Source: Escherichia coli O157:H7
Lineage (GTDB): Bacteria; Pseudomonadota; Gammaproteobacteria; Enterobacterales; Enterobacteriaceae
Reading direction: 5' to 3' (one strand)
Length of the DNA stretch: 64,000 bases
Assembly (NCBI RefSeq): GCF_013167455.1
Contig: NZ_CP038328.1
A program made the position numbers. Of this stretch, positions 18,001 to 27,000 are shown one piece after another. Within the stretch, counting starts at the first letter, position 1; the number at the start of each line of letters is the position of its first letter.

Positions 18001-21000
18001 CGCCCTCAAAAATCTGGAGCACCTGCTGCACGAGCTCAGTAACAGCATGAGTAGCCTGGGTAAAAATGACTGGCCTCTGGTGTTCATTCGCCCCCGGCAT
18101 GCCGAAATGGGCAGATGGTTAAAAGCGCATTATGATCTTTCCGCTGTCGACGGGTTTGTGCTGCCTAAATTTACCCTCAGTTCGTTAGCTGAATGGTGGG
18201 ATATCATGGTCGGGACTCACCTGTGCATGATGCCAACGCTGGAAACAGAAGATGTCTTTGACGTGGTTCAGATGCGCGAGCTGGCTACCCGTCTGGAGGA
18301 ACATCCCTGCCACGACCGCATTATTGCGCTTCGAATCGGCGGCAACGATCTTATGAACGTTGTGTCGCTTCGCCGTCCCCGGGACCTGACGCTGTATGAC
18401 AGCCCGATGGGCTACGTCATCAAAATGCTCGTTTCGGTCTTCGGCCCGCGTGATTTTGCCCTGACCGCGCCTGTATGTGAGCATATTGACGATCATGCCG
18501 TTATGGCCAGAGAGCTGGCTCTTGATATGGCACACGGGCTTGTTGGGAAAACGGCCATTCACCCGGGTCAGATAGAGGTCATTCAAAACGCGCTGATGGT
18601 CACTCAGGGTGAGCATTCTGACGCTCTGCGGATCCTGAACTCTACCCAGGCCGTGTTTAAGTCGCAGGGAGCAATGTGTGAACCCGCCACACATCGCCGC
18701 TGGGCGGCTGGCATTCTGGACAGGGCTCGTTTTTATGGGTTACAGAACGAGCAAAGCGCTGATGGAATCAGATTACTTACCGTGACCCAGCATCATTAAG
18801 GAAATCATAATGGGGTTCAGGTTCAGAAAGTCGATCAACATTATTCCTGGCGTTCGCCTCAACCTGAGTAACGGTGCACCGAGCCTGAGTGTCGGGCCGA
18901 GAGGTGCTTCCGTTTCTTTTGGTAGCCGGGGGACCTATGCCAATCTGGGCTTGCCCGGTACCGGGCTGAGTTACCGTACCCGGCTTGACCGGGCCGCGCG
19001 TTCCAGAGGTGAAAACCGGACGGCAACCGACCCGGGGCTCAGACAGGCGCTTGAGCAGAAAGCCGCTGAACTCATGTCAGCGGTAACCGCAATCCGTAAT
19101 ATTCACGAGCTGACGCCGGATCCAAAAACAGGCATCAGCTGGGCAGAGCTGGAAGCAGTATACCTGCATAACAGAACGTCGCCTTTTCAGGTTCCGGCAC
19201 CGGTGCGTCCAGAAAAGCCAGACTACCTTGTATTGCCGGAAAAGCCTGCCGAGAGCGAAGGCATTAGTTTTTTGGGTAAATGGTTTGAATCGGAATCAGC
19301 TAAAGCTGAGCGCCACGCCGAAAATCTTCGCCGGTGGCAGCAGGAGCTGATTGATGTGGAGCGTGAGAATACCCTTCGACAGCACCGGTACCAGCAACAA
19401 CGGACGGCCTGGGCCGAACAGTATGCAAACTGGAAGTTTGAAGCTGAAGAACATGAAAAACGGCTCGCCACGGCTCAGGCAGATGCCCGGCAGCAGTTCC
19501 GGACAGACGCCGCGTTTTTCGAATCATACCTGGCGGGTGTGCTGGCAGAAACTGAATGGCCGCGTGAAACGCTTGTTGCATTTGAAGTAAAGCCGGAGCT
19601 ATCAGCAGTCCTGCTGGACGTTGATTTAGCTGAGATTGAAGATTTCCCTGATAAGATTTACGGCGTTAATGCCCGGGGAACGGAGCTGACGGAAAAAGCC
19701 ATGACGCAAAAAGCCGTACGCGAAAACTATGCCCACCACGTCCATGGCTGCTTGTTCCGCCTGGTCGGTATCGTTTTACATACGCTACCTTTCGACAACG
19801 TGATTGTGTCAGGCTTTACGCAACGGGTCAGTAAGCGGACCGGCTATCTGGAGGATGAGTATATCCTGTCCTGCAAATGCACTCGCAGCCAGATGTCGTC
19901 AGTAAATTTTGCAGGCATAAAACACATTGATCCGGTTGAAGCGTTAGGCGATCAACCGGTTATTCGAAAGATGAGCAGTACCTTCATTTTTCAGCCTATT
20001 GAACCACTAACCCTTTAAGCAGGCTAAATCTTACGATGCAATTAAATACCAGACAGGCCCGGATTTTTAAGCTTGCCAACTTACTGGGCACCGGCAAGCC
20101 CGTTTCCGCTGCCGACATTATAACCAGTCTGGAATGCTCTGAGCCGACATTAACCCGGGCCCTCAAAGAGCTACGCGAGTCATATTCTGCGGAGATCAAA
20201 TACAGCAAGGCAGGTCATTCCTATCATCTCGTTAATCCGGGCCAGTTGGATAAAAAGACCCTCCGCCGGATGAATGAAGCGCTCGCACAGAATGCTGAAC
20301 TGAAAACCGGTGAGTCCACAGGGAAGGTCGTACTCGATAAGGATAAAAAAACAGCCGTGTCATTATCGCTACGCATGCGGATTCTAAGAAAAATTGACCG
20401 TCTGGCTGCGCTGAGTGACTCGACCCGAAGTGAAGCGGTAGAGAAGCTGGCTCTGCACTCCGTTGATGAACTGATAAAAGAATACAGCGCTAAAAAGTCC
20501 TGACGCTAAATCTCAGACCGGGGTGAAAACTCCGGTTTTGTCATATTTCACCTCTGTATTGGCGTGATGCAAAATGGCATCTGAATCGATCATGGTTTGG
20601 CATCCATTTCCGATCACTGTTTGGCATCACAATCGATCACGATTTGGCATGCTTCCGCTCATTGATTGGCATCCTGGTGTCGTTACGGGGAAGTCATCTT
20701 CACAGGGATCTTCAGTCAGTTAGCATTACCGACATCCATTCACCAACTTACCGGAGATAATCAATGTCAAAACCCCGATGGACGCTTGATCAGAAAAAAC
20801 ATCACGTTGCCGCATGGCGCGCCAGCGGCCTTACCCGTGAACAGTACTGTGAACTTTACGACATTCCGTTTAAATCCCTGCGCCAGTGGCCGCAGGATGT
20901 CGCAAAAGCCGAAAAACGAGCCAGAGCTCCAGAAATTATTCCTGTTTCAGTATCTGGCTCTTCCGGAATGACTGATGGCAGACCATTGTCGGATGAGCCT

Positions 21001-24000: not shown

Positions 24001-27000
24001 GACATTTTTACAACATTGTCAGTGCATTAAGGCGGGATGTTTTGGGCTGACGCCAGTCCAGTTTATCGAGGAGCATTGCCAGCTGCGAGCGGGTAATGGA
24101 TACCTTACCGTCACGCACCGCAGGCCAGATAAACTGGCCTTCCTCCAGACGTTTGGTGAACAGGCACAGACCATCAGCATCAGCCCACAGAATTTTAATC
24201 GTGTCACCCCGTCGGCCGCGAAAGATAAACAGGTGACCGGAGAAGGGGTTCTCATCCAGCACATGTTGTACCTGTTCTCCCAGACCGTTGAAGGATTTAC
24301 GCATATCAGTAACGCCGGCAACCAGCCAGATTCGAGTGCCTGATGGGAGCGAGATCATCGTCCCCTCCCGGTCAGTTCACGGATCAACACCGTGAGCAGC
24401 TCTGGTGAAGGATTTTCCAGCGTCATGTTACCGTGGCGGAACTCAACTTTACAGGAACTGGCACTGACTGTGCTTTGTGAAGGAGTGGATAAAAGCGGAG
24501 TAAGAGCCGCCATAGGCTCTTTCTGCTCATCAGGCGTTATCTCAACAGGTAATAATTCAACGCCAGCGCCAGAAGAGGTTGTTACCGGAAGACGCCGCGA
24601 TATACGCCTTTCGTTCTGCCAGAGCCTGAGCCATTTGAACAGGAGGTTATCATTGATATCGTGTTCCCGGGCAATACGGGCAACAGAGGCTCCTGGTTGT
24701 GAAGCCAGTTTAACCATTTGAAGTTTAAACTCATTTGAAAATGATCTGCGGGGTTCTGAGGATAATATTTTCTGTTCCATAACAGGTGTCCACTAGTTGA
24801 AAAGGTGGGCACCTACGTTACCAATACTGGCTTAATGGCTACATACGGCGGTCAGTTTACGCTTACGAGAAAGAAGCGGTCCGCCGGTCGTCTGTTTTGA
24901 CTCGCAGACCGGACGGGCCCTCAGATATCCTGAGGCCTGGCTGCAGGGCTGGTGTGGCGGTACGCTGGTGAGTGACGGATACAGCGTGTACAAATCTCTG
25001 GCGGATAATGACCCCGGTATTACATCTGCCTGTTGCTGGAGCCACGCAAGGCGCGGTTTCGCAAATCTGTATAAGGCCAGCAGGGAGCCCCGTGCAGCCA
25101 TGGCGCTGAGAAAAATCGCGGGTCTTTATCGCATTGAGAAGTTCATCCGTGAACGTCCTGTGGAAAAAATACGGCAATGGCGACAACGGTATTCCCGGCC
25201 GATAGTGAATGACCTGTTTGCCTGGCCTGAAGAGCAGGAGCCGTGCTGTCCGCCCGACGGACCACTAAACAAAGCGATTAATTATATCCTGAACCGGCGC
25301 GATGAACTGAGCTGCTTCCTGAGTGACGGAGCCGTGCCCCTGGACAACAATATCTGCGAGCGTGCTATCCGCCCGGTGGTCATGGGGCGGAAAGCATGGT
25401 TATTCGCCGGTTCACTGATGGCCGGGAACCGCGCGGCACAGATAATGAGCCTTCTGGAAACGGCAAAACGTAATGGTCTGGAGCCGCATGCCTGGCTGAC
25501 AGACGTTCTGACGCGTCTACCGGAGTGGCCGGAAGACCGACTGGAAGAGTTGCTGCCCCTTGAGGGATTTACCTTCTCCGGGTGAGTGATACCTGCCATC
25601 AGGTGTTCGTGCAGCGGGCCATAACCCGCAGTCGGGAGTTGAACGCCTGACGACAGGAAATGAGCCAGAGCAGCGACCACGCGGGCTGACAGTGAGTCAG
25701 AACCTGAATCAGCCCGGAGCCATTCCCGGGGCTGTACTTCATCACCTGCCATCAGTACCCGTGTCAGTACTTCGCGACCTGACGCAATTACCCGACTCAG
25801 TTCTTCAGAACCCGCCTCCGATACCAGCCTGGCGGTCGCCCCTGTGCAACAAAATAAATCAACCATCGTCAGACGGTGATCAATCGTATGCGCTGCCAGT
25901 GGCTCGCCTGAAAAATGCGTCAATATGAGTTCGCCGGAACAATACCTCAGTTCTTCAGAACCCGCCTCCGATACCAGCCTGGCGGTCGCCCCGGCGCAAC
26001 AGAATAAATCAACCATCGTCAGACTGCGATCATTCGTATGCATCGCTGATGATGCGCCCGAAAAACGCGTCAATATGAGTTCGCCGGAATATTACTGACG
26101 ACACGGTTTGTAGTTACGTTCCTTCGGTGAGTGAGTACCTGTGCGTCAGGGTAACGCAATCAGTTCAGGTTTAGCGGGGTGTCAAGTCGGTTTGGCTAAC
26201 CGACCGCAGAATTAACTGTACCTTTAAAGGTCGCCCCCGATATATCTGCCTGTCAGACATATCGCCGATTCGGTATCTCACTACATAAAACTCCTTAAAA
26301 AACAATGCGATTCTGTTGGTACGAAGCTTTCAGTAAGTCAGTCCGGAGAAGCGCCAGTACGATACAGAATGAGGTTGAAAAAAACGTTCACGTCTGGTCA
26401 CTTCTTCAAATGTTAAAAAACATCTCGTAAAGAGCCAGTTTATGCGGGTTCGTTGAGTAGACGTGCGAGCGTCACTTTGTCAGCTTTAACGCTGACGAAA
26501 GTGACGCCCGCACAGCTTCAAACTCCACATGCACACGCAAGCGACCAAATTTCAAATGGTCTTATGCCGTGCGCACAGTCATAAGAAGCGCATGCGGAAA
26601 GTCAGAAAATATCTTAAGACGCAGATTTTAAAGGCGTTTTTATGCCAGTCTGCCGGGAATACACAGTAGTCCGGTTGTCCGGAAGCACCACGGTAATCCG
26701 AAGGAAAAATCAACGTACCTCAATCACCGTAGTGATATCCGTTCCCAGAGGCTAAACGGATGTACCACCATAAAGGCATCCTCTTTCAGGCTACGAGGAT
26801 ATTGCAATCACCCGAAGGCGTTTCTCTCAGATTGCTGAAACATTGGCTGGCAGTCACCCGAAGGCGTCCCTCTCAGACTGCTGGAACATTGGCTGGTCGC
26901 AAAAGCGACAGTTAATGCAAATACAGGTTAACAAAAAGGGAAATCTGCCGTCAACCCAACCATATGAACATGTTGATTTCATTATGAATGTGATGTTCTA

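Follow-up and report, generated by a model that had tools for sequence, protein, structure and literature searches.

How did a complete insertion sequence of the IS66 family come to lie within the transposase gene of another element of the same family, and what was the outer element before it was interrupted? The question is raised by a 64,000-nucleotide stretch of Escherichia coli O157:H7 DNA (contig NZ_CP038328.1), hereafter the window, which is the TAI/OI-43/48 (tellurite-resistance/adherence/urease) island of enterohaemorrhagic E. coli. A reading of the window made without database searches, hereafter the sequence-only reading, had described an IS66-family element nested in the transposase gene of another, and NCBIfam and Pfam hits for both elements bear this out (Table 1); in both, TnpC has the Pfam domains LZ_Tnp_IS66, zf-IS66, DDE_Tnp_IS66 and DDE_Tnp_IS66_C. 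The nest is a routine arrangement and is already known through public genome annotation, since PGAP annotates a split tnpC pseudogene whose halves, labelled "incomplete; missing C-terminus" (5' half) and "incomplete; missing N-terminus" (3' half), flank IS682. What is new is the coordinates of the ends of the outer element and its recognition as a recombinant.

Table 1. Features of the nested elements and their immediate neighbours (window coordinates; IR, inverted repeat; bit scores are given with the cut-off of the model)
Feature	Position	Strand	Details
IS21-family (ISSso4-like) left-end fragment, 109 bp	20568-20676	+	truncated where the outer element begins
Outer IS66-family element	20677-25945	+	2728 bp of own sequence, interrupted by IS682
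Outer left IR (IRL)	20677-20698	+	GTGTCGTTACGGGGAAGTCATC; identical to IRL of ISEc49-type copies L011 and L012
Outer tnpA	20764-21093	+	109 aa; NF047593, 45 bits (cut-off 28); PGAP annotation
Outer tnpB	21059-21421 (PGAP start 21080)	+	NF033819, 113 bits (cut-off 50)
Outer tnpC, N-terminal 277 codons	21503-22333	+	leucine-zipper region, zinc finger, first part of DDE domain
Target-site duplication, left copy	22326-22333		GAGAAAGA; exact, abuts IS682 IR
IS682, complete, 2533 bp	22334-24866	-	end bases shared with ISEc23-type relatives at unrelated loci
IS682 terminal IRs	22334-22357 and 24843-24866		24 nt each, imperfect (20/24 matching), starting 5'-GTAAGCG
IS682 tnpC	22364-23977	-	537 aa, DDE transposase; NF033517, 446 bits (cut-off 180)
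IS682 tnpB	24008-24358	-	116 aa; NF033819, 121 bits (cut-off 50)
IS682 tnpA	24355-24780	-	141 aa; NF047595, 85 bits (cut-off 74)
Target-site duplication, right copy	24867-24874		GAGAAAGA; exact, abuts IS682 IR
Outer tnpC, C-terminal 236 codons and stop	24875-25585	+	remaining DDE domain, IS66 C-terminal element
Outer right IR (IRR1)	25924-25945	-	GTATTGTTCCGGCGAACTCATA; 16/22 positions match IRL
Second right end in tandem (c2), 150 bp	25946-26095	+	own IRR at 26074-26095

The inner element and its insertion site

The minus-strand insert is complete, as had been claimed: between its terminal repeats (GTAAGCGTCAACGGAGCACCGTAT and, reverse-complemented, GTAAGCGTAAACTGACCGCCGTAT, both read directly), whose pattern did not occur in 100 shuffles of the window, lie three intact ORFs, each scoring above the NCBIfam cut-off for IS66 TnpA, TnpB or transposase. 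The tnpA and tnpB reading frames overlap by 4 nt and are both upstream of tnpC, in whose product PF03050, PF13005, PF13007 and PF13817 were all found. Across all 2533 bp the element is 100% identical to sequences in many genomes, including copies in Shiga-toxin-producing E. coli that are annotated as IS682. The name is the one that PGAP gives to the protein ("IS66-like element IS682 family transposase", WP_000088522.1), and it rests on this annotation because our literature search on IS682, IS683, ISEc49 and the nest found no paper describing the nest. IS682/ISEc23-type relatives are present at many unrelated loci, with other 8-bp duplications (TAACCAAA, TCACGTTC), which is indirect evidence of transposition. 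IS682 displays the features by which the IS66 family is recognized, namely a DDE transposase TnpC, tnpA and tnpB, imperfect IRs and an 8-bp target-site duplication. IS679 reportedly requires all three of its ORFs (TnpA, TnpB and TnpC), and we infer that IS682 moved by the usual DDE-transposase pathway of the family, which would need the same three proteins.

The exact 8-bp duplication GAGAAAGA that had been noticed on both sides of the insert was confirmed by direct reading. By itself this 8-mer is not rare (4 occurrences in the window against 1.9 expected); it is identified as the target duplication by abutting both IRs exactly and by an insert-free allele of the locus that has a single GAGAAAGA. 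IS682 and one copy of the duplication together measure 2541 bp, or 3 x 847, so the outer tnpC frame resumes at 24875, beyond the insert, as first proposed. The end of the interrupted frame had been placed inside the terminal repeat: the plus-strand ORF 21503-22360, which is outer sequence up to 22333, does stop near the repeat, but its TGA at 22358-22360 lies one base past the 24-nt IR. IS682 breaks the outer TnpC at codon 277, inside the DDE domain PF03050 (residues 178-461). Excision of IS682 and one GAGAAAGA in silico gave a 513-aa TnpC ORF with no base lost or added, which scored 432 bits on NF033517 (cut-off 180), and the alignment to an intact homologue that had been suggested as a check showed the healed protein to be 96% identical to a 527-aa plasmid-encoded one.

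Alleles and distribution

In strain 2013C_3963 (L004) the locus exists as an IS682-free allele, in which one GAGAAAGA is present, the BLAST pieces overlap by exactly 8 bp, and the tnpA, tnpB (381 bp) and tnpC (1542 bp) ORFs are all intact. The nest is carried by 509 of 5426 complete E. coli genomes (coverage of at least 80%) and is 99.9-100% identical among the listed complete genomes, which belong to several serotypes; in 229 of the 5426 the outer tnpC is uninterrupted across the insertion site. Genomes of O157:H7, O26, O111, O145 and others have the allele with IS682, and many O103:H2, O121:H19, O145:H28 and O45:H2 genomes the uninterrupted one. The restoration of the ORF by excision, the uninterrupted allele at the same locus and the 229 genomes with an uninterrupted tnpC establish the order of events that had been proposed, the outer element first and IS682 second.

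Two candidates for further nests were rejected. In Shigella dysenteriae plasmids, considered as carriers of a diverged nest, the IS682-like copy lies elsewhere, between copies of a duplication of its own (TCACGTTC), and nothing interrupts the outer-type tnpC fragment. In p786605_3, considered as a second nest of an IS682-type in an ISEc49-type element, the ISEc49-type sequence stops 34 bp short of the insertion.

The outer element and its ends

The termini of the outer element had been declared not identifiable, which was true for the sequence-only reading, but other copies place them at 20677 and 25945, with an extra end at 26095. Both positions are set by three groups of independent copies, the intact ones among them having 8-bp duplications of their own (CACATAAC, GTTTTCTG, CTTCATTC): ISEc49-type copies begin at 20677, L016 and L017 stop exactly at 25945 with differing flanks, and homology with copies in two unrelated plasmids begins at 20674-20682 and stops at 25945. 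The outer element thus has terminal IRs that coincide with the ends of independent copies, and it has the tnpA-tnpB-tnpC set with an IS66-type DDE transposase; its IRL starts with GTGTC, not GTAA, as do those of the ISEc49-type copies L011 and L012. No target duplication surrounds the outer copy itself, whose left flank is GCATCCTG and whose right flank is CTCAGTTC (beyond the extra end, TGACGACA). Since the intact relatives L002, L003 and L011 do have 8-bp duplications, the missing one is due to rearrangement of the outer copy and not to non-membership of the lineage.

Both neighbours are remnants. On the left, homology to the IncHI2 ter region stops at 20566, and the IS21-family fragment that follows starts with TGCAAAATGGCATC and contains five GATCAnnnnTTGGCATC-type repeats with a spacing of about 23 bp. 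The same 109 bp are present in 485 plasmid records in which the match ends exactly at 20676. In one copy (L009) they are followed by a frameshifted IS21-family istA, whose split ORFs scored 152 and 121 bits on NF033546 (IS21 transposase), and by an istB annotated as ISSso4-family; the repeat-rich terminal region upstream of istA-istB that characterizes the IS21 family is thus seen in L009, the window having the end fragment only. On the right, the second end in tandem matches the final 150 bp of the plasmid variant L002 at 100% identity and the 150 bp that precede it in the window (25796-25945) at 87%. No L002-type left IR, which would reveal an inversion or a split, was found elsewhere in the window, and Rfam reported no RNA family within 20568-26095.

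Most of the outer element is 97-100% identical to the unnamed plasmid variants L002, L003 and L016, of which the L002/L003-type body is found on IncF and IncI plasmids. Along its length the closest relative changes: the first ~110 bp, including the left end, are of ISEc49 type, the body is mostly of L002/L003 type, and L016-type segments include the right end, the right ~600 bp being of this third type. This identity profile marks the outer copy as a recombinant in which no fewer than three related variants are pieced together. The switches in identity suggest that related copies recombined homologously to give the mosaic, with recombination points at about 20790, 21440-21700 and 25370, and at least one earlier same-orientation nest has probably collapsed, leaving the 150-bp tail.

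This composition bears on the claim that IS682 inactivated the outer element. Although IS682 indeed breaks the DDE domain, the interrupted copy is chimeric and lacks a duplication of its own, and the nested allele also has a nonsense change in tnpB, where an early TAA at 21419-21421 replaces the GAA of L002, L003 and L004 (by PGAP coordinates tnpB is 342 bp long, against 381 bp where GAA is kept). We consider it rather unlikely that, as the sequence-only reading implied, the outer element kept its full function up to the arrival of IS682 and that this insertion was the sole inactivating lesion. In favour of such a history, all three ORFs are intact in the IS682-free allele; a 42-bp difference in tnpC length is common to the L016-type tnpC, which is an ordinary CDS in PLSDB and matches the window perfectly over that stretch; and IRL and IRR1, with 16 of 22 positions matching, are about as imperfect as the repeats of the duplication-flanked L011 (~18/27, by eye). 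On the other hand, the chimera lacks a target duplication, its ends are of mismatched origin, and its exact combination of left end and body is found only in the TAI island context; there is therefore no sign that the outer chimera ever moved as such.

Origin of the nest

Almost certainly, an intact IS682 inserted into the tnpC of a mosaic IS66-family element resident in the island. The insertion duplicated the 8-bp target GAGAAAGA and broke the resident transposase within its DDE domain, at codon 277, and the nest has since been inherited together with the island. The resident element itself is a dead-end mosaic, bordered on the left by the truncated end of an IS21-family element and on the right by a leftover L002-type 150-bp right end.

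It is very improbable that the two tnpC fragments derive instead from separate truncated elements that were joined when copies of IS682 recombined or a deletion arose between them. Such a history would be in keeping with a locus in which IS fragments have piled up and with an outer element that is itself recombinant, but recombination of one IS682 with another would give unlike 8-mers, not the same 8 bp at both flanks, the fragments join as a single ORF with no base missing or extra, and the empty-site allele of the identical locus refutes it. Least credible of all is an assembly artefact in which repeats were collapsed or mis-joined: IS66-family repeats are multi-copy (a median of 3 places per genome), and some EDL933 "plasmid" records with the region resemble mis-assigned pieces of chromosome, but the structure recurs at 99.9-100% identity in the listed complete genomes of several serotypes and, at a coverage of at least 80%, in a total of 509 genomes, and its PGAP annotation is consistent.

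With the insertion of IS682 into the resident mosaic as the preferred reading, a more general idea may be mentioned, to which we give little credence: on the plasmids and islands of enterobacteria, relatives within the IS66 family may insert into one another above chance, either within tnpC or within the long region at the right end, and same-orientation nests may then collapse by homologous recombination into chimeric isoforms that keep the right-end "tail" of the resident. If this were true, three layers of this kind would be preserved at the locus. Plasmid pESBL3171-IncF has a second, independent tail, a stretch of 38 bp from an L003-type right end that comes immediately after a c1-type IRR.

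The coordinates of the outer ends and the recombinant status of the outer element help to clean the annotation of the region. The nest is a stable and easily typed marker that separates two TAI island alleles among Shiga-toxin-producing E. coli, and the locus illustrates the pile-up and recombination of IS elements within pathogenicity islands.

Comparison with known elements

The name IS683 was rejected for the outer element because, in the IS683 of pHNSHP45 (PMC5996929), tnpA measures 651 bp and the layout is not that of the outer element. Positions 44047-44069 of the window, considered as an IR inside a transposase gene, are the right IR of an ISEc8-like copy (41628-44069, duplication GCGTAATC), the coordinates of the reference annotation being offset there.

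The inner element agrees with IS682, as named by PGAP, in its tnpA-tnpB-tnpC layout, its GTAAGCG-type IRs and its 8-bp duplication, and no difference is detectable. With ISEc23 it shares end positions and gene layout at ~91% DNA identity over the full length, but it is ~9% diverged and its PGAP name differs. Among PGAP-named elements, ISEc49 is closest to the outer element, whose first ~110 bp, including IRL, are 93-97% identical to it; both have the three-gene layout and a long 3' non-coding end, and the ISEc49-type L011 has the 8-bp duplication CTTCATTC, whereas the body of the outer element is only ~75% identical to ISEc49. Three ORFs, a DDE TnpC, IRs beginning with GTAA and an 8-bp duplication are the points of agreement with IS679, ISEc8 and IS66, the reference members of the family, and all of these the ISEc8-like copy in the window shows, but the isoforms differ, and the requirement for all three ORFs comes from data on IS679.

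An Intact IS682 Inside a Split Transposase Gene

The sequence-only reading had taken this locus for one IS66-family element nested in the transposase gene of another and flanked by an exact 8-bp duplication, and both claims hold: an intact IS682 lies within a split tnpC, and GAGAAAGA, read directly from the sequence, stands on either side of it (see the table). The insert begins with GTAAGCGTCAACGGAGCACCGTAT and its other end is the reverse complement of GTAAGCGTAAACTGACCGCCGTAT, with 20 of 24 positions matching; a comparable inverted-repeat pattern was found in none of 100 shuffles of the window. 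Its three intact ORFs (141, 116 and 537 aa, minus strand) hit the NCBIfam IS66 models for TnpA, TnpB and transposase above their curated cut-offs, the inner TnpC has all four Pfam IS66 domains, and the full-length insert is 100% identical to copies that the NCBI pipeline PGAP calls 'IS66-like element IS682 family transposase'. ISEc23-type relatives, ~91% identical to the inner element, are located in unrelated genes (wzzB, an L-lactate permease gene and trbE), and their homology borders fall exactly at 22334 and 24866-24868; since they share the exact border bases, the IS682 ends are correct and this is a full-length copy. Two more relatives have 8-bp duplications of their own, TAACCAAA and TCACGTTC.

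The plus-strand ORF starting at 21503 enters the insert and meets a stop at 22358-22360. When 21503-22333 and 24875-25585 are joined in silico, the resulting 1542 bp encode a 513-aa protein, and the alignment with an intact homologue that had been proposed as a check bears the reading out: over its entire length the rejoined protein shares 96% identity with the intact 527-aa TnpC found on two plasmids, and the sole gap is 14 residues near the N-terminus. The same 42-bp difference occurs in a third plasmid variant, where tnpC carries an ordinary gene annotation; the difference is a natural length variant rather than a lesion. IS682 entered at codon 277, within the DDE domain (residues 178-461). 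Upstream, the outer tnpB of the nested allele terminates at a TAA (21419-21421), where the pRHB23-C14_3 and pRK1 copies and the IS682-free allele have GAA and 13 further codons; this fits a decaying outer element.

The proposed order of insertion, outer element first and IS682 second, is likewise upheld by comparison of alleles, because an IS682-free allele with a single GAGAAAGA exists and tnpC is uninterrupted across the insertion site in 229 genomes, including O103:H2, O121:H19, O145:H28, O45:H2 and O111:H8 strains. At the same terW-proximal locus, strain 2013C_3963 has tnpA, tnpB and a 1542-bp tnpC without IS682, and the two BLAST pieces overlap there by precisely the 8 bp of GAGAAAGA. The nested form is present in 509 of 5426 complete genomes (at least 80% coverage of 20036-26400).

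Features of the IS cluster and of the surrounding island
Feature	Position	Strand	Remarks
Esr41 sRNA (Rfam)	3481-3554	minus	108.6 bits, above gathering score
IS21-family (ISSso4-like) left-end fragment	20568-20676		109 bp; starts TGCAAAATGGCATC; five GATCAnnnnTTGGCATC-type repeats ~23 bp apart
Outer IS66-family element	20677-25945	plus	2728 bp minus IS682
ISEc49-type segment	up to ~20790		93-97% identity
L002/L003-type segment	most of body		98-100% identity
L016-type segments	~21560-21700 and ~25370 to end		100% identity
IS682	22334-24866	minus	2533 bp
8-bp duplication GAGAAAGA	22326-22333 and 24867-24874
Tandem right ends of outer element	25796-25945 and 25946-26095		150 bp each, 87% identical
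STAXI RNA motif (Rfam)	26759-26910	minus	134 bits; gathering score 40.5
5' ureB sRNA (Rfam)	33631-33909	plus	86.5 bits, above gathering score; within urease operon
Third IS66-family element, ISEc8-like	41628-44069	plus	2442 bp; IRs GTAAGCGTACAGCC... and GTAAGCGTACAGCG...
Its exact 8-bp duplication GCGTAATC	41620-41627 and 44070-44077

Ends and Mosaic Structure of the Outer Element

The outer termini, which could not be identified in the sequence-only reading, are now placed at 20677 and 25945 by comparison with other copies. Two intact relatives of ~2772 bp each, on the unrelated plasmids pRHB23-C14_3 (L002) and pRK1 of E. coli W (L003), start with GTAATGTTCCGGGG, end in ...CCGGAATATTAC and have the 8-bp duplications CACATAAC and GTTTTCTG; their homology to the window runs from 20674-20682 to 25945, with a further 150-bp match at 25946-26095. 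From 20677 the window reads GTGTCGTTACGGGGAAGTCATC, which is exactly the IRL of two ISEc49-type copies, L011 (duplication CTTCATTC) and L012, and differs by one base from that of a third such copy, L014; it is not a decayed L002-type repeat. Independently, the flanking 109 bp occur in 485 plasmid records with homology ending at 20676, and L016 and L017, plasmid copies of yet another variant with unrelated flanks, both finish exactly at 25945. From these comparisons the span in the table follows. IS683 was excluded as the identity of the outer element, its gene layout being different.

When the alignment was scanned in 60-column steps for the best-matching variant, the element resolved into segments of different parentage, a combination seen in this island context only. 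The outer element has no target duplication, with GCATCCTG as its left flank and CTCAGTTC as its right one. Unlike flanks together with parentage switches are what homologous recombination between different IS copies should leave behind, and we infer such an origin.

The second right end matches the terminal 150 bp of the pRHB23-C14_3 copy at 100% identity, that variant's IRR included, and the IS682-free allele has the tandem as well. A copy of the type ending at 25945 may have landed in an L002-type copy already in place, with matching orientation and 150 bp from its right end; recombination between the bodies of both would then collapse the nest and leave the resident's tail. This reading fits all the right-end facts, and the parentage switch near 25370 as well. 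In pESBL3171-IncF (L016, 3598-3635) 38 bp of L003-type right end come directly after an IRR of the same kind, a second, independent tail.

Island Setting and Known Arrangements

The window is the enterohaemorrhagic E. coli island for tellurite resistance, adherence and urease (TAI, O-island 43/48, SpLE1), for which a co-linear O157:H7 annotation gives the order iha, ter genes, terW, two IS66-family elements, hok, ykgM-like L31 and ureDABCEFG. The identity is 100% with EDL933 records across 20300-26300 and with O157:H7 chromosomes across 20036-26400. IncHI2 plasmid homology of the ter region ends at 20566, and the 109-bp fragment sits between this point and the outer element. Since another plasmid (L009) has the same 109 bp ahead of a frameshifted IS21-family istA (NF033546, 152 and 121 bits) and an ISSso4-family istB, the fragment is an IS21-family left end truncated by the outer element; the window has none of the remainder. 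The STAXI motif lies in plasmid-like DNA that separates the IS cluster from the hok/L31 genes, and it overlaps a 46-bp tandem pair (26804-26895). An IS1203 (IS629-like) copy of O157:H7 strain ECP19-598, at the equivalent of ~39.6-40.8 kb, is missing from the window, and the annotation coordinates of that strain are therefore offset ~1.3 kb downstream.

New here are the positions at which the outer element starts and stops, the finding that it is a chimera, the IS21-family fragment and the leftover right end, additions that help annotation and are unsurprising. The nest itself is an ordinary IS-in-IS arrangement, present in hundreds of genomes of a very well sequenced pathogen, and is already known from public annotation, in which PGAP places two tnpC pseudogene halves on either side of IS682.
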